Source: Mobula hypostoma (Eukaryota). Taken from it: a stretch of 64,000 nt of DNA. The stretch's first letter is position 1. Each line of letters opens with the position of its first letter. The translations under genes were made by a program, and so were the position numbers. This document shows positions 4,708 to 58,160 of this stretch, in pieces. The stretch covers positions 168,270,001 through 168,334,000 of the forward strand of contig NC_086097.1 in NCBI RefSeq assembly GCF_963921235.1. The letters are read 5' to 3'. The notes beneath the pieces were generated by a model, which saw only the letters and a program-made list of their open reading frames with translations, had not been told where the DNA came from and made no database searches.

Positions 4708-7700
4708 CCACAGAAACCATAGAAACTACAGCACAGAAACAAGCCCTTTGGCCCTTCTTGGCTGTGCCGAACCATTTTCTGCCTAGTCCCACTGACCTGC
4801 ACGTGAACCATATCCCTCCATACACCTCCCATCCATGTATCTGTCCAATTTATTCTTAAATGTTAAAAAAGAACCTGCATTTACCACCTCGTCTGGCAGC
4901 TCATTTCATACTCCCACCACTCTGTGTGAAGAAGCCCCCCCTAATGTTCCCTTTAAACTTTTCCCCCCTCACCCTTAACCCATGTCCTCTGGTTTTTTTC
5001 TCCCCTTGCCTCAGTGGAAAAAGCCTGCTTGCATTCACTCTATCTATACCCATCATAATTTTATATACCTCTATCAAATCTCCCCTCATTCTTCTACGCT
5101 CCAGGGAATAAAGTCCTAACCTATTCAACCTTTCTCTGTAACTCAGTTTCTCAAGTCCCGGCAACATCCTTGTAAACCTTCTCTGCACTCTTTCAACCTT
5201 AATTATATCCTTCCTGTAATTTGGTGACCAAAACTGAACACAATACTCCAGATTCGGCCTCACCAATGCCTTATACAACCTCATCATAACATTCCAGCTC
5301 TTATACTCAATACTTTGATTAATAAAGGCCAATGTACCAAAAGCTCTCTTTACGACCCTATCTACCTGTGACGCCACTTTTAGGGAATTTTGTATCTGTA
5401 TTCCCAGATCCCTCTGTTCCACTGCACTCCTCAGTGCCTTACCATTAACCCTGTATGCTCTACGTTGGTTTGTCCTTCCAACGTGCAATACCTCACACTT
5501 GTCAGTATTAAACTCCACCTGCCATTTTTCAGCCCATTTTTCCAGCTGGTCCAAGTCCCTCTGCAGGCTCTGAAAACCTTCCTCACTGTCTACTACACCT
5601 CCAATCTTTGTATCATCAGCAAACTTGCTGATCCACTTTACCACATTATCATCCAGATCATTGATATAGATGACAAATAACAATGGACCCAGCACTGATT
5701 CCTGTTGCACACCACTAGTCACAGGCCTCCACTCAGAGAAGCAATTCTCTACCACCACTCTCTGGTTTCTTCCATTGAGCCAATGTCTAATCCAATTTAC
5801 CACCTCTCCATGTATACCTAGCGACTGAATTTTCCTAACTAACCTCCCATGCGGGACCGTGTCAAAGGCCTTACTGAAGTCCATGTAGACAATATCCACT
5901 GCCTTCCCTTCATCCACTTTCCTGGTAACCTCCTCGAAAAACTCCAATAGATTGGTCAAACATGACCTACCACACACAAAGCCATGTTGACGTTCCCTAA
6001 TATGTCCCTGTCTATCCAAATGCTTGTAGATTCTGTCTCTTAGTACTCCCTCCAATAACGTACCTACTACCCATGTTAAACTTACTGGCCTATAATTTCC
6101 CGGATTACTTTTCGATCCTTTTTTAAACAATGGAACAACATGAGCCACTCTCCAATCCTCCGGCACCTCACCTGTAGACAGCGACATTTTAAATATTTCA
6201 GCCAGGGCCCCTGCAATTTCAACACTAGTCTCCTTCAAGGTCCGAGGGAACACTCTGTCAGGTCCTGGGGATTTATCCACTTTAATTTTCCTCAAGACAG
6301 CAAGCACCTCCTCCTTTTCAATCTGTACAGTTTCCATGGTCTCACTACTTGTTTCCCTCAATTTCACAGACTTCATGCCAGTTTCCTTAGTAAATACAGA
6401 CGCAAAAAACCTATTTAAGATCTCTCCCATTTCCTTTGGTTCCGCAGATAGCCGACCACTCTGATCTTCAAGAGGACCAATTTTATCCCTTACAATCCTT
6501 TAGCTCTTAATATACCTGTAAAAGCTCTTTGGATTATCCTTCACTTTGACTGCCAAGGCAACCTCATGTCTTCTTTTAGCCCTCCTGATTTCTTTCTTAA
6601 GTATTTTCTTGCACTTCTTATACTCCTCAAGCACCTTATTTACTCCCTGCTTCCTATACACGTAATACAACTCCCTCTTCTTCTTTATCAGAGTTGCAAT
6701 ATCCCTTGAGAACCAAGGTTCCTTATTCCTATTCACCTTGCCTTTAATCCTGACAGGAACATACAAATTCTGCACTCTCAAAATTTCTGCTTTGAAGGCT
6801 TCCCACCTACCGATCACATCCATGCCAGAGAACAACCTGTCCCAATCCACGCTTTTTAGATCCTTTCTCATTTCTTCAAATTTGGCCTTCTTCCAGTTAA
6901 GAACCTCAACCCTAGGACCAGATCTATCCTTGTCCATGATCAAGTTGAAACTAATGGTGTTATGATCACTGGAACCAAAGTGCTCCCCTACACAGACTTT
7001 CTGTCACTCGTCCTAACTCGTTTCCTAACAGGAGATCCAATATTGCATCCCCTCTAGTTGGTCCCTCTATATATTGATTTAGAAAACTTTCCTGAACACA
7101 TTTTACAAACTCTAAACCATCTAGACCCCTAACAGTATGGGAGACCCAATCAATATATGGAAAATTAAAATCCCCTACCACCACAACTTTATGTTTCCTG
7201 CAGTTGCCTGCTATCTCTCTGCAGATTTGCTCTTCCAAGTCTCGTTGACTATTAGATGGTCTGTAATACAATCCCACTAACGTGGCCATACCTTTCCTGT
7301 TTCTCAGCTCCACCCACAAGGACTCAGTAGACAAGCCCTCTAATTTGTCCTGCCTGAGCACTGCTGTAATATTTTCCCTAACAAGCAATGCCACTCCCCC
7401 ACCTTTCATTCCTCTGCCTCGATCACATCTGAAACATCGGAACCCTGGAATATTAAGCTCCCAGTCCTGCCCCTCCTGTAGCCAAGTTTCACTAATTGCT
7501 ACAACGTCATAATTCCACGTGTCAATCCACGCCCTCAACTCATCCGCCTTCCCCGCAATACTCCTAGCATTGAAATATATACACCTCAGAAGATTTTTAC
7601 CACCACTCACAACCTTTCTATTAGCGGATTTGCTTGAATTTTTAACATCATTTATTTTCACCCCAGGCACACTGTCAGCTCTGGCACTTTGGTTCCCATC

Positions 7701-9067
7701 CCCCTGCAAATCTACTTTAAGGCCCCACCCCCCAATAGCATTAACAAACCTCCCTGAAAGGATATTGGTCCCCTTGTAGTTCAAGTGTAACCCGTCTCTC
7801 TTGTACAGGTCCCACCTGCCCCAGAAGAGGTCCCAATTATCCTGAAATCTGAAACCCTGCCCCCTACACCAGTTCCTCAGCCACTTGTTCATCCTCCAGA
7901 GCATCCTATTCCTACCCTCACTGGCACGTAGCACAAGTAGCAATCCTGAGATTACCACCCTCGAGGTCCTGCTTTTCAACTTCCTACCAAGCTCTCTATA
8001 CTCTCTCTCCAGGACCTCCTCACTCTTCCTTGCTATGTCATTGGTACCGATGTGCACCACGACATCTGGCTTATCACCCTCCCACTTCAGAATGTCATGC
8101 AATCGATCAGAGACATCCTTGACCCTGGCACCCAGGAGGCAACAAACCATCCTGGATTTTCTGTCACGACCACAGAACCTCCTATCTGTACCTCTAACTA
8201 TCGAGTCCCCTATCACTACCACTCTCCTCTTTTCCCCCCTCCCTTCTGCACTGCAGAGCCAGCCTCAGTGCCAGAGATCCGGCTATTGCAGCTTGTCCCA
8301 GGTAAGTCATCCCCCCCAACAGTATCCAATGCGGTATGCTTGTTGTTGAGGGGAATGGCCACAGGGGAACCCTGCTCTGCCTGCCCTTTCCCCTTCCCTC
8401 GCCTGACAGTGACCCAATTTCCTGTCCTCTGCTTTTTTGGCGTAACTACCTCCCTGTAGCTACGATCTATAATCTTCTCATTCTCCCGAATGATCCGCAG
8501 GTCATCCAGCTCCTGCTCCAGTTCCCTAACGCGGTTTGTTAGGAGCTGCAGCTGGATACACTTCCTGCAGGTGTCGTTGTCAGGGACACCGGAGGGCTCC
8601 CTGACTTCCCACATCCTGCAAGAGGAGCATTCCAACATCCTGCCTGGCATTCTCTCTACGCTAGACAATCTGAACAAAAAACTTACCGGAACCTACCCTG
8701 GCCTCTGCCTGTTCTCGCGGAAGTCTGTTGAGCCAAAGCCACCCCACTCTGACTCAGTCCACTCCGATGATGGCCAATCCGACAATGGCCGCTACAACGA
8801 TGGCCGCTGTATATGGTGGTCTGCTTTTTAAACCTTGGCACGCTACGTCACACGCCTGCGCAGTGCAGACCCTTCGCCCTGAGCAGTTTTTAAGAAAGAA
8901 AAACGACTTTTTCGACCCGAATTCTTCCGCTCACTTCTTCAGCTACTTGCTTCGACTGAAACAAGAACCATTGAAATTTTCCCTTCTTAAACCTTGGCGT
9001 GCTACGTCACGCGCCTGCGCAGTGCAGACCCTTCTCCCCGAGCAGTTTTTAAGGAAAAAAAAATGAC
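4708..9067 (-). mobile_element. Near full-length CR1 LINE nested in another CR1
   Basis: 5' UTR 9067-8651. ORF1 has CxxC..CxxC finger, coiled coil and SGNH esterase (GDS, GTND, DGLH). ORF2 has APE endonuclease (YFNARS, SETWL, GDFN) and RT (KFADDTK). Tail is (tttctatgg)n. Few frameshifts. Confidence 0.95.
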
Positions 9068-13957: not shown

Positions 13958-15010
13958 AGAACATGGAATAGTAGAGCACGGGGACAGGCCATTCAGCCGA
14001 CAATGTCATGCTGAACCAGCTAAAAGGTAAATCAAAAACACCCAAACACTAATCCCTCCTGCCTACACCATTTCCATATCCCTCCATCCTCCTTACATCC
14101 ATATGCCTATCCAAACATCTCTTAAAAGCCTCTAATGTATTTGCCTGTACAGTACCACCATACCAGGCAGTGCATTCCAGTCATCCACCACTCTGAGTGA
14201 AAAAACTTACATAGAAACATAGAAAACCTACAGCACAATACAGGCCCTACAGCCCACAAAGCTGTGCCCAACATGTCCCTACCTTAGAACTACCTAGGCT
14301 TTACCCACAGCCCTCTATTTTTCTAAGCTCCATGTAGCCATCCAGGAGTCCCTTAAAATACCCTATCGTTTCTGCTTCCACCAGCCCATTCCACACACTC
14401 ACCACTCCCTGCGTAAAAAACTTTCCCCTGACATCTGCTTTGAACCTATTTCTCACCATCAATGCATGTCCTCTGATAGTAGACATTTCAACCATGGGAA
14501 ATGGATACTCTCTGTCCACCTTATCTACGGCTCTCATAATCTTGTAAACCTCCCTTCAACCTCCAACTCTCCATAGAAAACAAGCCAAGCTTATCCAGCC
14601 TTAGCCGGCTGGTGGCATAGTGGCATTAGCGCCAGACTTCGGAGCAAAGGCTCCCAAGTCTGAATCCAGCCGGCTGCCTTGCATGCTTTCCATCAGTGCT
14701 GGGTTGAGTGTCGAGGCAGCAACTTGCTCTCATAAAAATAAGAAAGCCTGCTTAAAAAACGCTGTCATGATGGTGTCCCGATGACCCCACTTGGAGTTAA
14801 GGGCTTTCTTCTTCTTCTTATCCAGCCTCTTGTGATAGCACACGACCTCGAAACCTGACAGCATCCTGGTTAACCTCTTCTGCATCCTCTCCAAAGCCTC
14901 AGCATCCTTCCTGTAGTGGGGTGACTGGAACTGTACGCAATACTCCAGCTGTGGCTTAACCAGAGCTTTATAAATGTGCAACATAACCTCCTGAATCTTG
15001 AACTCAATGC
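13958..15010 (-). mobile_element. CR1 3' region with a second CR1 tail nested at ~14209-14420 and a SINE insert
   Basis: IEFKIQEVMLHIYKALVKPQLEYCVQF; IRGHAL..RGKFFTQGVVSVWNGL. Two separate tail motifs. Confidence 0.8.
14602..14816 (+). mobile_element. tRNA-Arg(TCG)-like SINE with (CTT)n tail and 12-bp TSD
   Basis: TSD cttatccagcct at 14590-14601 and 14817-14828. A-box tggcatagtgg, anticodon-like gacttcgga, degenerate B-box gtctgaatcc. Confidence 0.8.
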
Positions 15011-18000
15011 CTTGTCTTGTGCCCCTGTGCAAACTGAATGGTTCCGAGAGGGTCTGATTAGTTAGTATTTTAGCACTAGGGTTACTGTACAGTAGCTTAA
15101 TCCAAGTTATAAGTTTGTCTCTCATTCCAAATTTTTTTCAAAACCTCATAGATGTATTGCCATTCCACTTGGTCAAATGCTTTCTCAGCATCTAAACTTA
15201 ATATTATAAGGTCTTCCTTAGGATGTCTTGGGGAATGCATTATATTAAGAAGGCACCTGATGTTATGGAAAGAATTCCTTTTAGGGATAAACCCTGTTTG
15301 ATCTGAGTGTACCAATTTATTTATCTGCTGAGTCTCCTTGCCAGTGTTTTAGCCAAAATTTTCTGATCCAAACTTAGCAGTGAAATTGACCTATAAGATC
15401 CTACCTCCTCTGGGTCTTTGTCCTTCTTCGGAATAAGCGTGATAATGGCCTCGTTCAGGGTTTGGGGTAACCTGCCAGTTTCAAACGACTTTCTATACAT
15501 CCTTATCATACAAGGTGCTAATAAGTCACTAAGCTTCTTATAAAACTCATTACCTATTCCATCCGAACCTGGACTCTTGGCATTTTTCAGACATCTTATT
15601 GTTCTTACTATTTCATCATTTGTAATCTCAGTTTCCAAAGCCTGACGCTCCGTCAGATTGAGTGAAAGTAGCCTACAAGTGTCCAGAAATGTATGCACGC
15701 TCCCCGTCGGTACATTAGATTGAGATGCATATAATTTTTCATAATACTGACGGAATCATCAAATGAAGAAGTTCTCAGAAGAGCCCAAGCAGTTCGATCA
15801 CTCATACCAACAATAAGAGAAAGACAACTCAGATTCCTAGGACGCATCATGCGGAAAGATGAACTAGAAAAACTCATACTCTCTGGAAAGACTGAGGGGA
15901 GTAAACCTAGAGGAAGACCTCGGCTTATGTACATCAAAAACATAGCCAGGTGGCTACACATCGAGGAAACGGAAGTCATCCAAAAAACGAAGGATAGATC
16001 TATATGGAAAACCATGGTCACCAAAGTCCGCATCGGATATGGTACCTAGACAGACAGACAGACTGACGGAATCTTTGATTCATGTCTTTGTGTGACATCA
16101 ACGGAGTGCCCGAGTCTGATGTAATTTTATGAATGGTCTGATCACCTTCCAATTTGCGTAGCTGTCTTGCCAGCAATTTGTGCGTCTATCACCAAATTGA
16201 AAGAAATTCTGTTTTGTAAACACAAAGGCTCTGCACACCCTTTTTGAGAGTATTTCGTTAAGTTTGTGATTTAATGCTGAAATTCTGTTGTATTTTTCTG
16301 CGGATGGTTGTCGCGCATTCTCCGTATCTAGTTTATGTATTTGTTTTTCTAGTTCTATTTGTTCTGCTCTACTATGTTTCCTTAGGGAAGACTGAAAAGA
16401 AATTATACATCCTCTAACTTAAGCTTTAAATGTTTCCCATAGCAGTCCTGGGGGTGTTTCACTATTATCATTTGTCTCAAAAAACAACAAAATTTGCGAT
16501 TCTAAATACTCACAAAATTTTGGGTTTGTAAGTAGCTGAGGATTAAACCTCCAATTTCTATGTATTTGCGTCGATTCACCCAGCTCCAGTGAAAAAGTAA
16601 CAGGGCTGTGGTCTGAGATGACAATATTATATCTTGCGTTATCGACTTGTGGCAGTATTTTGCCATCGAGGAAATAGTGCAAAGCTAGTACAGTATATAC
16701 ATTATGAACTCTAGAGTGGAATGAATACTCTCTCCCTGTTGGGTTGAATAGTCTCCATACCTCACACAGATTCATATTGTCTGTATATGTTTTCAACAGG
16801 TTACTTGCCTTTGATGGTAATGCCCTTTGATTGGAAGATCTGTCTAAAATTAAAATCTCCTCCAATAATCAGGTTAGTGCTGGAGACCGCTGGTATCAAT
16901 CCTAGAACTCATCTAAAAAATTTCGGGTCATCCCAGTTTGGTCCGTGGATATTCAGTAAGATAACTGGCATAGATTGTATTTCCCCAGTAACTGTAACAT
17001 ATCTCCCATCCTTGTCTGCTATTGTTGTTAGGTGATGGAATGGAATGGCGCGAATTATTATTGCCACACCCCTAGATTTCATTGGAAACTTTGAGGAATA
17101 TATTTGGCCTAACCACTTGCCCCTAATTTTACAGTGAGCTTCATTCTTCAAATGTGTTTCCTGCAAGAAGATCACATTGGCGTGTAGCAATTCTAGGTGA
17201 GACAGCACTTTACCCCTTTTCACCGGCTCATTAATCTCATTTACATTCCAGGAACAAAAGGTAATGGGATTTCTTGTCCCCTGACTTCCTACCACCTCAG
17301 TACTTAATATCTGTATGATAATGTTTTTGATCTGTTCTGGACCTTGTAAATCTATCGGTCATTAGAAATAAACGGATCCTAAACAGCACTCCCTTACCCC
17401 TGTCCCTCCCTCCCCCCACAACCCCCATCACCCCCATCACCCTTGAAAGCTGGAAAAAACCAACAAAAAAACATATCTCCATACACAAATACACCCAGTC
17501 AAAACTCTAGGAATAACTAGTTGATCTCTAACATCTCTGAACCAATTTAGCAGTTCCAGTTGTATAGATGGTCACAAAGCCAAACCTGGCATCGGAATGA
17601 AAAAAAAAACACAAGAAAAACTAGCAAACAGAGATTATCGAGATGTTAAAGTAAGTGTGATTCTCAAAGCTAAAGGCTAGCACCATTAACAACATACTCC
17701 TCGTACAACACCAGTTTAGACCAACCCTTATTACTATCTGCGCATTCATAGGGCTTTAATCCGACATAGTACAATCCAAATATAACTCAGAGTCCTGTTT
17801 TCTACAGGGATTAGAGGTAGGGCCTCATTAATGTTCGAAACATTAACAATTTCCTACAGCGGAGTTTAACTTGGGGCGTCTTCATTCTGTAAGGGTTTTT
17901 TTTTTACTGTGCACAGTTACTTCTCAGCATTTCCCAAATGACGTCCCGCACACCCGCGAGCTTCTTCTGGATCTGTAAACACCGCTTCGGTTCCATTAAT

Positions 18001-18998
18001 TGTCACTCGTAGCTTCGCGGGATAGAGGAGGCCAAACTTGACTCCGGGTCTATCTCGCAGCAACCTCCCGACCAGTGTGAAAGCCGCACGTCGTTTAGCC
18101 ACCGTGGATGGAGGGTCTCTGAAGATCTGAATCCTTTGTCCTTGATACTGTAGATTCTTGGTACCTATCGCCTTCCGCATTATATCTTCAAATACATGGC
18201 AATAATGAATCCTCACGATCAGGTGTGGCGGCGGCTCGTCGTCCCCCAGGCGGGTCTGAAGTTTGCTCTATGTGCTCGGTCTGTCACCGGAGCTTCTTCC
18301 AGGTTTAGAGCTTCTTTTGGCATCTGTGCCGCGAAATCTCGTCTTCTGCCCATTTTCCTTCCCCTCTCGTAGGCCCGCGATTCACAGATTCTGTCGTTTC
18401 AAACGCCCCTCTAAATCCAGGCATTTTTCAGAAAGTTGTTTAAATTGCCCACAAAGTCGTTTCACCTTGCTTTCCAGCTCTACAACTATGTCCGAAGCTC
18501 CATTAACCGACTCTGCTATCTCTTTCAGAGTTTGATCTTGTGTATTCAACTGGGCTTTCACTGCGGTAACTGCAGTATCATTTTCCGCTTTCAACGAAGC
18601 AATTTCACTTCTCAAAGCGACCGCTACCTCTGCAACTTTTTCTTCAATTTTCTTACAGTTGTCTGATATCATAGTTAGCTCTGCACGTAGCGCCTCTACG
18701 GTCACCAATACCGCATTGTCGTCCATACTGTGCACGTGGCCCTCATCCTGAGCTCCGAGGCGTCAATTGGGCCTGTTTCTTCATTCGTCCCTGCCTCAGC
18801 CGTTCCTCTTCGCAGCATTTTGTAGCGCACTCCTTTCTTTCTCTTTCTGGTATGTATTGAAGAGCACCTCCACTTCGTTTGCCTCCCTAAACCTCTAATT
18901 GACTGTGTAAATGAAGTTTTAATATCAAATCTGCCGGAGCTACAGGAGGGTGCGTCCCACTTGCTCATGGCCCAACAGCGTCTCCCCCGCCCCCCCCA
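15011..18998 (-). mobile_element. L1-clade LINE with intact 5' end, 3'-truncated within RT
   Basis: ORF1: coiled coil, LEGRLKRQNL, QRIQIFRD, FGLLYPAKLRVT. ORF2: SWNVN..FLQETHL, ISDHSPV, KSPGSDG, LDAEKAFD, RGTRQG. G-rich 5' start. Multiple frameshifts. Confidence 0.92.
15758..16061 (+). mobile_element. 5'-truncated RTE-clade LINE inserted in the L1, 12-bp TSD
   Basis: TSD actgacggaatc at 15746-15757 and 16062-16073. Open frame SNEEVLRR..RQLRFLGRIMRKDELEKLILSGKTEGSKPRGRPR..DRSIWK..* and (CAGA)n tail. Confidence 0.88.
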
Positions 18999-23808: not shown

Positions 23809-24048
23809 TCACATAGTTTGGCACTCTTCCAATGACACATTCTGCAATTTCTGCTGTTTCTTTTTCCCATTTTCAACTTCCTTGTTCCAATCCTTGAGGC
23901 CCTCAGGTAGAGTAGTGTCTTCATCAAGGCTACCTGTCCCTTCTACAAACTCCTCATATGTTGATTTTTCAGCAAAGGGTCTAGGCCCCAAGAGCTCAAC
24001 CATGTCTGCCTTGTCAAGTACCTCCTTTTCCAACAGTCGCTGGGCAAT
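23809..24048 (-). CDS. AFG3L2: AFG3-like terminal coding exon (exon 17 equivalent), TGA stop at 23809-23811
   Basis: [57 protein letters not shown]...CQTM*. Acceptor tttcag. Confidence 0.93.
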
Positions 24049-25437
24049 CTGAAATGTAGCACAAATGACAGCTTGACACAAGAATTCCTCAGTAGAAAAT
24101 GCTGTCATATTTCTCAAAAATACTAATGGTGAATTGATAGATTTCTAGTGCTAGAATGGGACAGAAATTGAGAATATGCTCCCCAATATGGAGGAAATTT
24201 AAAGCAGAGCTAGCAAAATACAAGATAATCACTAACAAACGCTATGGGAAGATTGATTATGCAGAAAATGATTAGTAGCTGGAACTCATTACACTCAATA
24301 GTAGTTGAGTCAAATACCATAAATATATGTAAAGGAAAGCTAGGTAAAGACATGCTGACAGTGATGGATGAAGTAGACTAAAACCACATCCATCACCCAA
24401 AACGTTCTTTCTCTACTCGATTTTTGTACAATTGTTACAGCAGTCCGTACCATTTCCAAAATATGTGATTTATTCCAACAGAAACTCTCAAACCTTTGAT
24501 TTTTACCAAGCTGCTCAAGGCAGAACATTCATGGGACCTGTGTTTCCCTCCAAGTAGTACACTATTCACAATTGGAAACCTATCACTGGGTCTTATTCCG
24601 GGAATTCACTGCACAGTAACATTGTGGGGAGTACCCTCACTAGGACTGCAATAGTTCCAGATGGCTCATCATCAATTTCGCAGGGGCAATTAAGGATGGA
24701 CAATAAATGTAGGCACTGCAAACAACTACTTGATGCCTAATGAAGATGTTCCTCCAAACATAAGCCAATTTTGTGCTATCATTTTGCATCATCTGAGTCA
24801 AGAAATAGAAATGGAGTATATGAAAGGCATTGTAACAAAGCCTGAACCAAATATACACACTTCAGTACAGATAAAGGACCACCAATAAAATGCTGAGTTT
24901 TTCATCTTTGTTAACGTAATATGGATAATGGACTGAAAATGGGACTTAACCAGGCTTCACTGTATCTCTGTGTGCTAATAAGTATTGAGATCCAACTACC
25001 TTAATTAGGTATTAAATTCTTTATATAATATGAATTCAGCAAAATCAAATGGTTTTGGCTGTAGGCAGACTTAAAGATACTACAAATGCAAATGTGATAA
25101 TATTGAAGTACCTCTGCAGGTTTGAGTGTCTAAAGCTTGGGCCATCCTTATTAGTTTCAAAAGTAAAAAACAAATCCACTAGTCCATGTGCCCTCCAATC
25201 TAAGTGCTGAAGTTTTTGTGTTAGTGGATTCAACTTTAAATGCATTTTATAGAGATCCACTAAGGAAACTCAAATGGTCATGTTCCTGGCCCAATGGGAA
25301 ATTGTAGAACAACCCTTCTGATGTCCCTTTCCATTTCAGAGATCTATGCATTTGTAAAGGATCAAGATAGCAGCGCATGCAAAGGTATCTTCATAACTGT
25401 AAATAATGATATTTTTTGGAGATTGAAATTTTCTAAC

Positions 25438-37659: not shown

Positions 37660-40600
37660 AAAAGTGAGTGATTGGGCCAGTGAAGGAATGGAGATTTGAG
37701 GCTTTGGCTCGAGAGGTTTTGGCAGTTGGATTGTGCAATCAAGTCAATCAAGATTTGAATAGCTCAAGACTCAGCACAAAGCAGTTGATTGGGCAATCAA
37801 AAATTGAAAAGCTCAAACAAATAAAAAGAAGGGTAGCTCAAGCAGAGCGACCAGTGAGTGAGTGGGCCAGTGAAGGAGTGGAGCTTTGAGGCTTTGACTC
37901 GAGAGGTTTTGGTGAGCAAAGGCTGAGGACGAGCTTGCTCCAGGTGAGGTAAGGCTGGGTAAGTTTCTTTAATTAATTTAATTAACTTGGGAGTTGGTAA
38001 TGGAGGCAGTAGAAAGGGCAGTCCAGTGCTCCAATTATAAGATGTGGGAAGTCAGGGACTACACCTGCAAAAAGTGCGTCCAGCTGCAGCTCCTGTTATG
38101 GTTGACTGTCAGAAAAGGGAAAGGGAATAGACAGAACGAGCAGAGCACCCCTGTGGCTGATCCCATCAACAATAAGTATACTGTTTTGGATACTGTTGGT
38201 GGGGACGACCTACCAGGGACAAGTTGTAGTGGTCGCGTCTCTGGCACCGAGACTGGACCCTCAGTTCAGAAAGGAAGGAGGGAAAAGAGGAGAACAGTAG
38301 TGATAGGGGATTCGATAGTTAGGGGGACAGATAAGAGGTTCTGTGGGAGAGATCGAGAATCCCGGATGGTCTGCTGCCTCCCTGGTGCCAGAGTCTGCGA
38401 TATCTCGGACTAAATTCTCGGTAATCTCAGGAGAGAGTGTGAGCAGCCAGATGTCGTGCTCCATGTGGAGACCAATGACATAGATAGGAGTAGGGATGAG
38501 GTCCTGAAGAATATAGGGAGTTAGGAAAGAAGTTAAAAAGCAGGACCTCAAGGGTGGTAATCTCGGGATTGCTGCCTGTGCCACGAGGCAGAGAGGGTAG
38601 GAACAGGAAGTTATGGCAGATGAATGCGTGGCTGAAGGGTTGGTGCAGGGGGCAGGGGTTCAGATTTCTGGATCATTGGGATCTCTTATGGGGAAGGTCT
38701 GACCTGTACAAAAAGGATGGGCTGCACCTGAACTGGAAAGGGACCAATATCCTGGCGGGCAGGTTTGCTAGAGCTGTTGGGGAGGGTTTAAACTAGCTTG
38801 GCGGGGGGGTGGGAATCAGAATGTGAGTGCAGAGATTAGAGTGGAAGGACAGGGGCATGATGCTATGTGTTCTGAGTTGGTGAGGAAGGACAGGCAGGGG
38901 ACAAAACATAAATGTAGCCAGTTAGAGGGGTTGAAATGTGTCTATTTCAATGCTAGGAGTATTAGGAGTAAAGGGGATGAACTTAGAGCATGGATCAGTA
39001 CATGGAACTATGATGTTGTGGCCATATTGAAACTTGGCTGGAGGAGGGGCAGGATTGGCTGATGCAGGTACCGGGGTTTAGGAGTGTTAAAAGGAATAGG
39101 ATGGGAGGTAGAAAAGGGTGGGGGGAGTAGCATTACTGGTCAGAGATAGTATCACGGCTATAGAAAGGGAGGACGCTTCAGAGGGAGTGTCCACTGAGTC
39201 GGTGTGGGTGGAAGTCAGAAATAGGAAGGGATCAATCACTGTGCTGGGAGTAGTCTATAGGCCCCCAAATAGCCCTTGGGACACCGAGGAGCAGATAAGC
39301 AGGCAGATTTTAGAATGGTGCAGGAAATACAGAGTTGTAATTATGGGTGATTTTAACTTCCCTCATATTGACTGGCACTTCCTGACTGCAAGGGGAATAG
39401 ATGGGGCTGAATTTGTCAGGTATGCTCAAGAAGGATTCCTGACACAGTACGTGGACTGGCCGACGAGAGGAGAGGCCATACTGGATCTAGTTCTGGGTAA
39501 TGAACCTGGTCAGGTGGCAGACCTCTTGGGGGAGCAATTTGGTGAGAGTGACCACAACTCCCTTAGCTTCAGCATAGCTATGGAAAAGGATAAAAACAGA
39601 CAAAATGGGAGAGTGCTAAACTGGGGAAGGGCTAACTATGAAGGGATGAGGCAGGAGATAGGAAAAGGGAACCGTGGATGACGAAACACGTGAGGCAACT
39701 CGTCAAGAGGAAGAAGGAAGCATATGTAAGAGGCAGGAAGCAGGAGGGGCTCATGAGAAATATAGGGTAGCCAGGAAGGAGCTTAAGAAACTACTTAGGA
39801 GAGCTCAAAGGGGGCATGAGAAGGCCTTGGCATGTATGATTAAGGAGAACCCCAAGGCATTCTATGTGGATGTGAAGAACAGAAGGTTGACAAGAATGAA
39901 GGTGGGGCTGCTAAAGGATACAGAAGGCAATTTATGCCTGGAGGCGGAGGAAGTTGGGGAGGTCCTAGAAAAGGACCTTGATCAGGGTGAGGTTGAAATA
40001 GAACAGGCCTGTGTGTTGGACAATGTGGAGATTAAGGAAGAAGTGTTGGATCTTCTTAAAAACATCAAGATTGATAAGTCCCCAGGGCCGGACGTGATAT
40101 ACCCCAGGTTGCTGTGGGAAGTGAGAGAAGAGATCGTTGGAGCAGTAGCTATGATCTTTGAATCCTCTTTGGCTACAGGGGAGGTGCCGGAGGTCTGGAA
40201 AATGGCAAATGTAGTTCCTTTGTTTGAAGAAGGTAATAGGGAGAATCCTGGGAACTATAGACTGCTGAGTCTTACGTTGGTGGTCTGCAAACTATTGGAA
40301 AGGATTCTTAAGGATAGGATCTACGAGCAATTGGAGAAGTACAGTCTACTCAAGGACAGTCAACATGGCTTTGTGAAGGGAAGGTTGTGCCTCACGAGCC
40401 TAATTGAGTCTTTTGAAGAGGTAACAAAAGAAATAGATGAGGGTAGGGTGGTAGATGTGGTCTACATGGATTTTAGCAAGGCATTTGACAAAGTCCCCCA
40501 CGAGAGACTCATCCAGAAAGTCATGAAGCATGGGATCAGTGAAACCTTGGCTGTTTGGATAAAAAATTGGCTTATAGGAAGAAAGCAGAGGGTAGTAGTG

Positions 40601-41620
40601 GAAGGAAAGTATTCTGCCTGGAGGTCAGTGACTAGTGGAGTGCTACAAAGATCTGTCCTGGGACCCCTGCTCTTTGTGATTTTTATAAATGACCTGGATG
40701 AAGAGGCAGAAGGATGGATAAGTAAATTTGCGGATGACACGAAGATTGGAGGAGTTGTGGATGGAGTTGTAGGTTGTCGAAGGTTACAAGAGGATATAGA
40801 CAGGATGCAGAGTTGGGCAGAAAAGTGGCAGATGGAGTTCAATCTGGATAAGTGTGAGGTGATGCATTTTGGAAGGACAAACCAGAAGGCTGAGTACAGG
40901 GTTAATGGTCGGTTACTTAAGAGTGTGGTTCAAATCCATACATCCCTCAAGGTCGCTGCACAGGTTGATAGGATAGTTAAGAAGGCCTGTGGGATGCTAG
41001 AGTTCATTAATAGGGGGATTGAGTTCAAGAGTAGAGGGGTCATGACTCTACAAATCTCTGGTGAGACCACACTTAAGAGTATGGTGTTCAGTTCTGGTCA
41101 CCTCATTATAGGAAGTATGTGAAAGATATGGAGAGGGTGCAGTGGAGATTTACCAGAATGTTGCCTGGATTGGAAAACAAGTCTTATGAGGCAAGGTTCG
41201 CAGAGCTGGAACTTTCCTCTTTGAAGCGTAGAAGGATGAGAGGAGACTTGATAGGGGTCTACAAGATTGAGAGGCATAGATAGGGTGGATAGCCAGTACC
41301 TGTTTCCCAGGGCATGAATAGCAAACACCAGAGGGCATATGTACAAAGTTAAGGGAGGGAAGTTTAGGGGAGACATCCGGGGTAAGTTTGTTTGTTTTTT
41401 TTTACACAGAGGGTTGTGGGTGCCTGGAATGACTTGCCAGGGATGGTGGTGGAGGCTAAAACATTAGGGGTATTTAACAGCCTCTTGGATAGGCACATGG
41501 ATGAAAGAAAAATAGAGTGTTACGGGGTAGCGTGGGTTTAGTACTTTTTTTTTCAGTAATATATGGGTCGGCACAACATGAGGGCCGAAGGGCCTGTACT
41601 GTGCTGTAGTATTCTAGTGT
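37660..41620 (+). mobile_element. Near full-length degraded CR1 LINE in AFG3L2 intron 12 (antisense to the gene)
   Basis: 5' UTR with a 190-bp-period repeat. ORF1: QCSNYKMW..TCKKC, VVIGDSIVRG, DGLHLN..VGEGLN*. ORF2: YFNARS, GDFN, KSPGPD, KFADDTK. Tail gggccgaagggcctgtactgtgctgta ends ~125 bp from exon 12. Confidence 0.93.
38784..38796 (+). promoter_or_regulatory. Putative -1 programmed ribosomal frameshift site at the CR1 ORF1 end
   Basis: G_GGT_TTA_AAC_TAG contains two overlapping X_XXY_YYZ heptamers in ORF1 phase. The -1 frame from 38793 is open into the ORF2 endonuclease. Confidence 0.55.
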
Positions 41621-41747
41621 CTAAAAATGAGAAATTGATTAAAGAAATGAGAAAATAAAATATAAAGCCACAAATTATAACCCACAGAAGGAAATCATTT
41701 GTACAAGTTGTATTAAATACCTTTCAAATCACAATATTTATGGATAC

Positions 41748-51795: not shown

Positions 51796-52849
51796 TAAGA
51801 CAAATAACTGGGCCTCTCCTTAAATCTGTCATTAGATGGACCAAATGGCCTAATTCTGGTCATATGACTTATGGTCTTACAGATATCGAAGATAAAATAC
51901 AAGTTATTATCAAAACAAGTACAAAAGGCAGCAGTAAGAAAGGAGAAATGAAAAACTGGACAAGCGAGAAAAATCCAAAAACTGAACCTTGAAGAAATGA
52001 CATGTTAATAAAAGGACAGTTTCTCCAGTGCTAATTGGTAGTATTTATCACCATTATTCAAGTAGCGATTCATTCTAGAATGGTGAAACCCTAACTTTGT
52101 GGCATATTTTGCCTATCTCTACATTGCAAGTAAATAGCAAAACCTGGCTCAGGTTAATTTGCATTTTCAAAAAAAAAAGTGGGTAAAAAAAAGTCCAACA
52201 TATTTTTTGAAGGATTTCCTGCAGGAATAGCATTACCCTCAACAAACTTTCAAATGAAACCTTAACTTGTATAGTGGATTTAATAGATTATTTTGTATAG
52301 AAGTGCATAGCCTAATTATTCTCAGACTGGGAATAATTACACAGATTTTAACTTATGTTATAGCTATGTTCAAAAGCTATCTGAATGAAAACAAACATGC
52401 AAATCAGATCTTAATATACGCATGAGAAAAAAATGGTCGATGTATGTCATGACAATAAAATCCAGTGATTTTAACCAGCACTACAGTACCCCAGATAAGC
52501 AGAAGCAATTAAAAGAACAAAAGATACAAGAATAGATGTGCAATTGATAAAATTAATCTATTTTGTGTCACATTATTTTCAGATTAAGGTCTAATGGAAA
52601 TTTAATGCCACTTTTCCAATTATTTAACCTTAAACTGGAAAAAGAGTGCAGAAAGTTCTTTTCATGTCTCTTTGTATTACCAGTTGGCAGTAAATTGCAG
52701 AGGAAGATTTAGGAAACTATTATGTACTCCTTTTTCACACTTGTCTTTTGCGGTGGAATGACTTTGCCCCAGGATGTCCTACAATCAAGTTCTGTTCTAG
52801 AAAATGTTGGATGGCCATTTCCAAGGACCTATCATACCTGATTGTTTCA

Positions 52850-53152
<303 letters not shown>

Positions 53153-54053
53153 TCAAATACAACAAAAGTTTGTATGCAAATAACAATATAAACTGGCACA
53201 CATGTTCAAAAATTATCTAGCTTAAAATAGTAATAAAAACTTAAATGATAGAATGGGAAGTTGAATGGAAATGGCCTAACTAGAACTGTATAGAACTGAA
53301 ATTGCATGAGAACACTGAACATCAGACACCTAATAGAGAAATAACAGAAACTAAGTTTGCTTACAATATGATCTTAAGGATTCAAGATCCCTTGGAATGC
53401 TATGCTGAACAATGAAAAGTGGTAAGAGGGGCAAAAAGGTCAGACCAATACAGCTATACACAAATTGAAATAGGCAATTTGGTCGGCATGGATGAGTTGG
53501 GCCAAAGGGCCTGTATCTGTGCTGTATGACAATAAATAGTGCTAATCAAGTCATGATCCAAAGCACCTACTCTACTTCTTCCACACATGCTGCCCAATTT
53601 ACTTAACATTTCCTGTTTCTGGAGGTTAAGTATGGACTAAAATGGAGGTGATCAATGCTGATAACACCAGAAACTGGAGAGACATTTAACAAGAACATGA
53701 AAGAATATAATGTATATTCTGTGTCAAGTTACGAAGTGGAGGCCGAGATATGAAGGTCAGTTATTTAGAGTTTCAAAAGAGGCTGTTATATTACTAGTGG
53801 AGGGAGTGAGAGAGTAATGGTAACATGGAGATAACATAGACTACTTCCCATTTCAATTATTTCTGGTTAGTGTTTATATTGTGCACTGCCTGAACATACT
53901 TGGAAGGACTAGCACATTATTTTAATCTTCAAGGTTAAAATCCGCAATGGCAAAATTAAACCTAAGGGATAAGGGTAATAATACCACTCATTCCCCCAGA
54001 GCTATCAGTCATAACCCTAATGCACTCCATGGATTTTGTCTACAGCAAAGTCA

Positions 54054-54365
<312 letters not shown>

Positions 54366-56244: not shown

Positions 56245-58160
56245 CAAGACATAGGAGCGACCCAGCCCAATGAGTCTGCTCCACCAATCCATTAGAGATG
56301 ATTTATTATCCCTCTCAATCACATTCTCCTGCCTTCTCCAAGTAACCTTTCACACACTGAGAAAACAAGAATCTAGCAACCTCCACTTTAAGTATACTAA
56401 ATGACATGGTCTCCATAGCCATCTGTGGCAATGAATTGCAGAGATTTGCTACCCAGTAGCTAAACAAATTCCTCCTCATTTCTGTTCTAAGTGGATGTCT
56501 CTCTATTCTGAGGTTGTGCCCTCTGGTCCTAGACTCATCCACTAAAGAACGCATCCTCCCCCACATCCACTCTATATAGGCATTTCAATATTTGATTGGT
56601 TTCAATGAGATCTCACCTCCCATTCCTCAAAATTCCATTTACAACTCTAATTTTTGAATTTTCTCCCATTCAGAAAACAAGTCTACCCCTTTACTCATTC
56701 TACCAAAGTATATGACCATATATTTCCCGACACTTTATTCTATTTGCCATTTTGCACATTCTCCCAATCAGTTTAAATCATCCTGCAGATTAATTTCCTC
56801 ATCACCACCACCTGTCTTTGTACAGTCCACAAGCCAGACCACAAAACCATAAATTCCATCATCCAAATCACTGATATATAACTTGAAAATAAGTGGTCCC
56901 AACATCGACCGTTGCAGGATACTAGTCACCAGCAGTCAAACAGAAAAGCCCCCCCACCCACTTATTCCCACTCTTTGCCTCCTGCCAGTCAGACAATCTT
57001 CTATCCATACTAGAATATTTCCAGTAATACCATGGGCTCTCATCTTGTTCAACAGCCTCAAATGCAGCACCTTATCTGAAATTCCAAGGAAACAACATCC
57101 ACTGACTTCCCATTGTCTATCCTGCCTGTTATTTCCTCACAGAATTCCCCCTTAAGGAAACCATGATGACTTTGGTACATGAGCCTTCAAGTACCCAGAA
57201 ACTTCATCCTTAATAAGGAATTCAACATCTTCCCAACCATAGAAGTCAGGCTAATTGACCTATAACATCCTTTCTTCTGCCTTCCTCCATTCTTAAAGAG
57301 TGGAGTGACATTCGCAATTTTTCTCCGGAACTATTCCCAGATCTAGCAGTTCCTGAAAGATCATTACTAATGTATCCATAATCACTTCAGCTACCAATTT
57401 CAGAACCTTGGGGTGTAGTCCATCTGGTCCAGGTGACTTACTTAGTTCTGTATTCATCACCCTTTTCGATTTTGCCCCATGTTACACTTCAACTCATCCC
57501 ACTGACTGTCATTTCACCTTATCATCTGTACTTCCTCAGTGTCACTACATACTGTATCTACTTGTATACCAACTACTCCATCCTCAGTCCTATCACTCCA
57601 GTTCCCACACATGCAGGTTTGCTAGAGTTGTTGGGGAGGGTTTAAAGCTTAAAATTCAAACTCTCCCCAACAACTATAGCTCATCTGCCTGCAAGAACAT
57701 TGGAGACCCTCAGGTTCGGGTGTAACCCATCTTTTTTGTATAGGTCATACCTTTCCCAGAGAGAGATCCCAAGGATCTGGAAATCTGAAACCCTACCCCC
57801 TACACCAATTCGTCAGCCATGCATTCATCTGCCAAATCATCCTATTTTTCATAGGCATGAGGCACAGGCAGTAATCTCCCTATATTCTCTCTTCAGTACC
57901 TTATTCCTTTTCCCATCTATGACATTGGTACCAATATGTACCACAACTTCTGACTGCTCATCCTCCCTCTTTAGAATGCTGTGGACCCGATCTGAGACAT
58001 CCCTGACCCTGGCACCCAGGAGGCAAAATACCACCTGGGTGTCTCTTACACTGCCAGAATCTCCTGTCTGCTCCTCTAACTATAGAATCTCTTATCACTA
58101 CTGCACTACTCTTCTCTCCCACTTCCCTTCTGAGCCACAGAGCCAGATTCAATGCCATTA
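56245..58160 (-). mobile_element. Internally deleted CR1 (ORF1 esterase, spacer, RT pieces, tail)
   Basis: AVVIRDSIVRG, VVVHIGTN; SRTRGHNLRI..RRNLFS..NLCNSLP. Contains a small inverted duplication at 57613-57646. Confidence 0.82.

Follow-up and report, generated by a model that had tools for sequence, protein, structure and literature searches.

The stretch analysed here, referred to as the window, comprises 64,000 nucleotides of the 3.5-Gb genome of Mobula hypostoma (NC_086097.1, positions 168,270,001 to 168,334,000). It contains minus-strand exons of an AAA protease gene (23809-24144, 52847-53152 and 54051-54365; AAA domain E 6e-14), which we take to be FtsH/AFG3L2-like, and several decayed LINEs sit between the exons of this gene. 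A decayed L1-type element was recognised by eye in the ORF list at 14730-18762 (minus strand; ORF1, APE and RT pieces), with an RTE-like fragment near 15735-16049 inside it. The element of interest, at 38-41.6 kb, lies in an intron of the protease gene and antisense to it. It is a near full-length CR1 on the plus strand, with an esterase ORF1 (approximately 38000-38796) followed by APE and RT. The features of this copy and of two further CR1 pieces are:

38000-38796, plus strand: CR1 ORF1 (Cys-rich N-terminus, SGNH esterase), ending G-L-N-stop
38769-38771, plus strand: TAG in the ORF2 (-1) frame, closing that frame 5 sense codons 5' of the U_UUA_AAC heptamer
38784-38790, plus strand: G_GGU_UUA heptamer, found only in families with GGT, after a G, as third-last ORF1 codon
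38787-38793, plus strand: U_UUA_AAC heptamer in ORF1 phase, the predicted shift site
38793-38942, plus strand: open -1-frame linker of 50 codons, from the predicted shift site to the APE domain
38794-38796, plus strand: ORF1 stop directly 3' of the heptamer, TAG in this copy
38803-38809, plus strand: G run, candidate stimulator, with a conserved core of G5 at +11 to +15 after the heptamer (38804-38808)
38865-38867, plus strand: in-frame ATG of family A, with three out-of-frame ATGs 5' of it; most families lack it
38943-41541, plus strand: ORF2 APE endonuclease (begins YFNARS) and reverse transcriptase, with several frame breaks; end approximate
7700-7735, minus strand: degenerate junction in the second CR1 copy (family B), with 4 extra bases and the heptamer lost
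57613-57646, plus strand: 34-nt ORF1-end fragment, stopping at TTTAAA and abutting the inverted ORF1 end of another copy

Pfam matches in ORF2 identify the endonuclease (PF14529, E 2.4e-11; also PF03372) and the reverse transcriptase (PF00078, E 5.2e-29), in the order APE then RT as in an esterase-type CR1 LINE. The ORF1 of the junction-bearing copy aligns to full ORF1 proteins at 53-66%, and that of the second window copy matches the SGNH esterase family PF13472 (E 7e-14). Among named ORF1 proteins, rays and sharks supply the nearest ones, and relatives occur in shark, ray, frog, turtle, lizard and bird. CR1 elements carry a short 3' repeat in place of poly(A); inspection by eye found a degenerate short repeat near 41595-41622 and no long poly(A). 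Also by eye, a unit of approximately 55 nt occurs twice in the 5' region (37666-37915), the two copies approximately 190 nt apart. The element is an ordinary decayed member of the vertebrate esterase-ORF1 CR1 LINEs. Its ORF1 contains an internal stop, a frame break near 38500 and a deletion, and with both ORFs broken the copy is evidence only as a fossil of its family.

An earlier note on this DNA had drawn attention to the ORF1/ORF2 junction, and its reading of the letters is accurate. The ORF1 frame ends GAG GGT TTA AAC TAG. From 38793, the -1 frame translates as LAWRGGGNQ...LKCVYFNARSI and stays open into the APE endonuclease. The in-frame AUG mentioned there as a caveat is present, starting at 38865 rather than 38864. 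The note had further described the junction as a virus-like tandem slippery site, G_GGU_UUA (which we take to be the yeast L-A virus site) overlapping U_UUA_AAC. This holds for the present copy but not as a general signal: G_GGU_UUA is family-specific, occurring in 28/30 members of family A, 0/30 of family B and 24/58 heptamer loci, and the tandem was rejected as the core signal.

Two other pieces of the window had been cited in support. In the second copy the linker indeed lacks an in-frame AUG, but the heptamer itself has been lost (C TTA AAG) and 4 bases have been added, so that ORF1 and ORF2 form one open frame. This frame (6966-8264, minus strand) joins the ORF1 esterase and APE over 432 codons by way of the 4 extra junction bases. 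Similar in-frame fusions made by decay were seen among the predicted proteins P0020, P0048, P0094 and P0155, and can mislead gene annotation. The fragment at 57613-57646 was discarded as evidence for the junction, being an ORF1 end only, with no stop, G run or ORF2. It forms part of a head-to-head pair of CR1 ORF1 ends from different copies (57610-57691), which make up an imperfect inverted repeat of 82 nt with 78% identity. In each piece the sequence breaks off at the heptamer position or immediately after it, a hint that the site doubles as a breakpoint.

Families A and B, named after the junction-bearing and the second copy respectively, were each represented by the best 30 of 40 scored matches, including the window copy. 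Family A retains the heptamer in 28/30 copies, with ORF2 in phase in 25/28 and an ATG in the linker in 23/25. In family B the heptamer plus stop occurs in 28/30 and ORF2 is in phase in 27/28, with a linker ATG in just 1/27. A motif-blind sample was drawn using a pattern for the first APE motif (20,680 genome matches, control 3), from which the first 100 on contig 1 were taken. ORF1 ends were placed by tblastn using ORF1 tails minus their last six residues; 27/100 loci had no upstream ORF1 end and were dropped, leaving 73. Exact TTTAAAC was found at the projected ORF1 end in 51/73 and within 6 nt of it in 58/73, while TAG or TAA directly follows the heptamer position in 55/73 (TAG 30, TAA 25). 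Approached from the APE side, the heptamer lies 100-260 nt upstream in 65/100 loci, compared with 0/100 in a control stretch.

The APE domain is in the -1 frame at 46/58 heptamer loci and out of phase at 12/58; a stop interrupts the linker in 15 of the 46 in-phase loci, and we read both the out-of-phase loci and the linker stops as decay. The heptamer-to-APE distance is a multiple of 3 in 50/65 loci (binomial p 8e-13, which is overstated as the copies are not independent), and the phase stays fixed at -1 in linkers of 12 different in-phase lengths (141-234 nt). The 46 in-phase linkers together contain 20 stops in the ORF2 frame; the two remaining frames contain 203 and 239, and the linker thus looks translated. 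On the 5' side, the ORF2 frame is closed 2-8 sense codons before the heptamer in 42/46 in-phase copies, and no ATG occurs between that stop and the heptamer in any of the 46. Entry into the linker would therefore be possible only at or right beside the heptamer.

No in-frame AUG is common to different families. An in-frame linker ATG occurs in 13/46 in-phase loci, at scattered positions, and characterises two of seven families, family A and one other (4/4). In the families and lineages without one, the earliest Met of the ORF2 frame falls within the N-A-R motif of APE or 3' of it. In 34/58 loci (the families of L085, L153 and L074) the G run contains an ATG in the frame of ORF1, flanked by G at positions -3 and +4, from which a short out-of-frame ORF begins directly 3' of the ORF1 stop.

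The sites at which ORF1 is free to vary silently are constrained. In the seven multi-copy families, ORF1 closes with NNT (for four amino acids) followed by TTA and AAC, each of the latter in 7/7. Elsewhere in the tail, three invariant Leu are encoded by 2-3 codons each and invariant Gly codons also vary. The Phe codon of the tail is likewise TTT in 7/7 families, so relatedness of the families explains part of this conservation. Among 14 lineage representatives, which are intact copies picked by hand, the residue preceding the terminal Leu is G, S, A, D, C, T, H or F, yet its codon ends in T in 14/14. Read in the -1 frame, the G run spans the third position of a variable codon (Q, K, L or R) and a Gly codon that is GGG in 14/14, which points to a constraint at the RNA level. 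The heptamer shows no variation among lineages at synonymous sites.

Genome-wide, the motif TTTAAAC-TAR-N7-GGGGG occurs 22,141 times, compared with 8 for a reversed control. Single-base variants are rare: 476 with the first T changed to C (2.1%), 766 with AAT (3.5%), which is still slippery, and 313 with TTG (1.4%). A non-silent control variant occurs 162 times (0.7%), so the silent TTG change is approximately twice as frequent as the control, a point that tells against the frameshift reading. The variants are scattered over many spacer types, as decay after insertion would give, and no large family has thus fixed a variant.

The junction extends beyond the source genome. A metagenome scan yielded 15 loci, with a usable junction in L161 only; 10 others are weak matches, L162 is incomplete, L174 lacks an ORF1 end, and L163 and L173 lack such a junction. 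L161 is 97% identical to a protein whose cluster includes sturgeon sequences. This sturgeon-type element reads CAT TTA AAC TAG, N7, G6, followed by an ATG-free linker into APE. A more distant lineage is represented by 13 loci from one public assembly; these are eukaryote-type LINE copies, counted here as one lineage, with L183 (incomplete) and L190 (weak) left out. Its esterase is 31-44% identical in the comparisons made, 31-38% to that of the source genome, and the junction reads TTT or TAT TTA AAC TAG, N7, G6, with the exact heptamer in 12/13 loci, the G6 run at +11 in 11/13 and a linker ATG in 0/10 in-phase loci. Between L012 and L177 the only blastn match is the 23-nt junction, with 22/23 identical. 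Given the amino acids and each element's own codon use, the chance of the silent letters is roughly 0.0008 for L161 and approximately 0.003 for L177 and L185. Most distant-lineage copies carry T TTT TTA AAC (L177, 2540-2549), creating a second overlapping heptamer, U_UUU_UUA; this tandem partner differs from the G_GGU_UUA of family A. The contigs concerned (CBDHHR01; L176-L189) belong to a bacterial MAG record with at least 13 copies of this eukaryote-type esterase LINE, and host DNA is probably present in the record. Entries assigned to Pseudomonas (P0022) and Klebsiella (P0239) likewise include esterase CR1 ORF1 proteins.

At the protein level, 80/93 ORF1 relatives with a DGLH-type motif (from 128 proteins) end in L-N. 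An amniote-centred search gave an L-N end in 65/100, including frogs, turtles, squamates, alligator and birds; 29 of the remaining 35 are without the DGLH-type motif and look shortened or fused. Support from amniotes and amphibians is at the protein level only. At the junction, the fused predicted protein P0155, which belongs to a third distant cluster, has F-K-L, the -1 reading of the heptamer. The cyprinid esterase ORF1 proteins P0120 and P0128, which may be L2-type, do not end in L-N, and the signal is thus not common to all esterase LINEs. Among viral contigs, query A1 found no ORF1 relative and query A3 gave 5 weak matches, while none of 62 motif matches carried a CR1 protein by tblastn.

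Several features of canonical -1 frameshifting are present at the junction: an X_XXY_YYZ heptamer in the upstream frame, a downstream ORF open in the -1 frame with no shared start, and conservation at silent sites. Canonical sites require a stem-loop or pseudoknot 5-9 nt downstream as stimulator, and its apparent lack here tells against a canonical signal: folding of 17 copies in three windows revealed no shared helix 3' of the site (z <= -2 in 2 copies). Two-tier G-quadruplexes over the G run are predicted for 5/17 copies and for none from the outside lineages, and no position emerged consistently when the sequence was scanned for a distant pairing partner of the G run. Neither a conserved hairpin nor a conserved G-quadruplex, for both of which the earlier note had suggested folding the downstream sequence, was thus found, nor a long-range partner. 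The conserved downstream element is a bare G5 with a fixed 10-nt spacer, present in 7/7 families and 44/58 heptamer loci. By analogy with known systems, a protein-bound G run is a reasonable idea for the stimulator, and the adjacent stop may in addition slow the ribosome.

We suggest that esterase-type CR1 LINEs probably make ORF2 by programmed -1 ribosomal frameshifting, yielding an ORF1-ORF2 fusion. Most ribosomes would terminate at the UAG or UAA, so that the released ORF1p ends x-L-N. The others, a minority, would slip back by one base, with tRNA-Leu and tRNA-Asn on UUA AAC, read CUA as Leu and continue through a linker of 30-75 codons into APE and RT. The predicted product is an ORF1-APE-RT fusion whose junction reads ...G-L-N-L-(V/A)-W...; as with Gag-Pol, it would be produced in a low, fixed proportion. 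Tandem slippage on U_UUA_AAC would explain together why the heptamer and the phase are kept, why the overlap is short and the linker open, and why an AUG is missing; it is from this pattern that we infer the slip, the fusion protein and a stimulator role for the G run or adjacent stop. The Gag-Pol-style fusion put forward in the earlier note is thus supported as an interpretation. The observations that the note had named as telling against it (a conserved in-frame ORF2 AUG, a variable ORF2 phase, free variation of the heptamer at synonymous sites) were sought at the level of sequence, and none spoke against frameshifting.

The main rival is an AUG-free restart in the -1 frame, close to the ORF1 stop, by ribosomes that have terminated there; aided by the heptamer/stop context and the G run, it would give a separate ORF2p. 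A stop always directly 3' of the heptamer and a linker open from the stop onward are compatible with such a restart, and a UGGGA found 3' of the G run in most families of the source genome resembles the calicivirus restart motif. However, the calicivirus motif acts 5' of the stop, whereas UGGGA lies 3' of it and is lacking in L161 and L177. L1 provides a precedent, as a passage of PMC5009743 describes L1 ORF2 being made without its AUG; the missing AUG in CR1 therefore does not by itself prove frameshifting. An AUG-free restart leaves unexplained both the exact X_XXY_YYZ sense codons and the fixed -1 phase with an overlap of 13-25 nt, and we consider it unlikely. Less plausible still is reinitiation or internal entry at a downstream AUG, with an untranslated linker and the motif serving another role such as RNA packaging or termination context. 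Reinitiation and IRES use are named as ORF2 options in the review text consulted (PMC3894237), and the linker ATGs of family A and the one other family would suit them; these two families could use both a frameshift and an AUG start. A linker ATG is nevertheless lacking in 33/46 in-phase loci, in 26/27 family B copies and in both outside lineages, the out-of-frame ATG inside the G run would be met first in 34/58 loci, and of the linker's frames only -1 is kept clear of stops, all of which make this reading very improbable.

We also weighed an RNA-level route that would bring ORF2 in frame, by splicing onto the AG of TAG or by polymerase slippage. In TAG families, TTTAAACTAG resembles a 3' splice site, but 25 of the 55 stops are TAA and provide no AG. 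The G run lies 3' of the stop, where polymerase slippage could not bring the two ORFs into one frame, and T3A3 is a short run. A splice acceptor and polymerase slippage were both set aside on these grounds, and an RNA-level route seems hardly credible.

Programmed frameshifting is hence our preferred account, and the junction, a real and deeply conserved feature, is best read as a signal for -1 frameshifting in a LINE family that is already known. A bolder proposal, which we regard as possible though doubtful, is that U_UUA_AAC-stop-N7-G5 constitutes an ancient, structure-free frameshift signal of esterase CR1s within and probably beyond vertebrates. A protein, either ORF1p itself or a G-run binder of the host, would occupy the G run 11 nt downstream and block the ribosome, mirroring the C-rich stimulator of PRRSV, and the dominant retrotransposon of most vertebrates would make a regulated esterase-endonuclease-RT polyprotein.

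The literature searched, in which the 1997 CR1 sequence papers and most subscription journals fell outside the scope, contains no description of the conserved heptamer, stop and G run of CR1. The word 'frameshift' is absent from the accessible portions of PMC13343379, PMC8665684, PMC2734521 and PMC3905857, 'CR1' from the first 300,000 of the 449,034 characters of PMC5009743, and frameshifting from the ORF2 options in the portion consulted of PMC3894237, where the mode of LINE ORF2 translation is called an open question. The CR1 group is described in part of PMC13343379 as the dominant retrotransposon in most vertebrates. If CR1 does use a frameshift, ORF2 translation would acquire a precise and cheaply testable mechanism. 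The start of CR1 ORF2p would be wrongly annotated, the enzyme would carry an esterase and coiled coil at its N-terminus, and ORF2 constructs started from the first AUG would lack some of the endonuclease. The natural frameshift signals would, in addition, gain one in which a bare G run replaces a folded stimulator.

The comparisons with known systems below refer to the passages of the cited sources that describe them. The elements studied here share an SGNH esterase ORF1 and an APE plus RT ORF2 with canonical vertebrate CR1s (PMC13343379, PMC3905857). Like L1 and SART1, they would have a bicistronic LINE RNA from which little ORF2p is needed. L1 and SART1 make a separate ORF2p by restart, SART1 through a UAAUG stop-start (PMC3894237); in CR1 the ORFs overlap at a slippery heptamer and there is no UAAUG. 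A precedent for frameshifting in an APE-type LINE is provided by the Dictyostelium non-LTR retrotransposons TRE5-A and TRE3-A, for which a -1 frameshift is stated to be required for ORF2 (PMC5911963). CR1 differs in clade and host, and the likeness derives from that stated requirement. U_UUA_AAC is the -1 frameshift site of IBV and among the most shift-prone heptamers on mammalian ribosomes (PMC5009743). CR1 shares with such viral sites and with retroviral Gag-Pol the same heptamer in the 0 frame, a -1 downstream ORF and, if our reading holds, a polymerase fusion made at low level. It differs from the viral sites in having G5 at +11 and no 3' stem-loop found, and from retroviral Gag-Pol in being a non-LTR retrotransposon without a protease for processing a fusion. 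A parallel for the candidate stimulator is the PRRSV frameshift stimulated by nsp1beta and PCBP, where a protein-bound motif lies 11 nt from the shift site (PMC5009743). Both systems have a short unstructured element 11 nt 3' of the site, although the PRRSV motif is C-rich and follows a different heptamer, whereas that of CR1 is G-rich.
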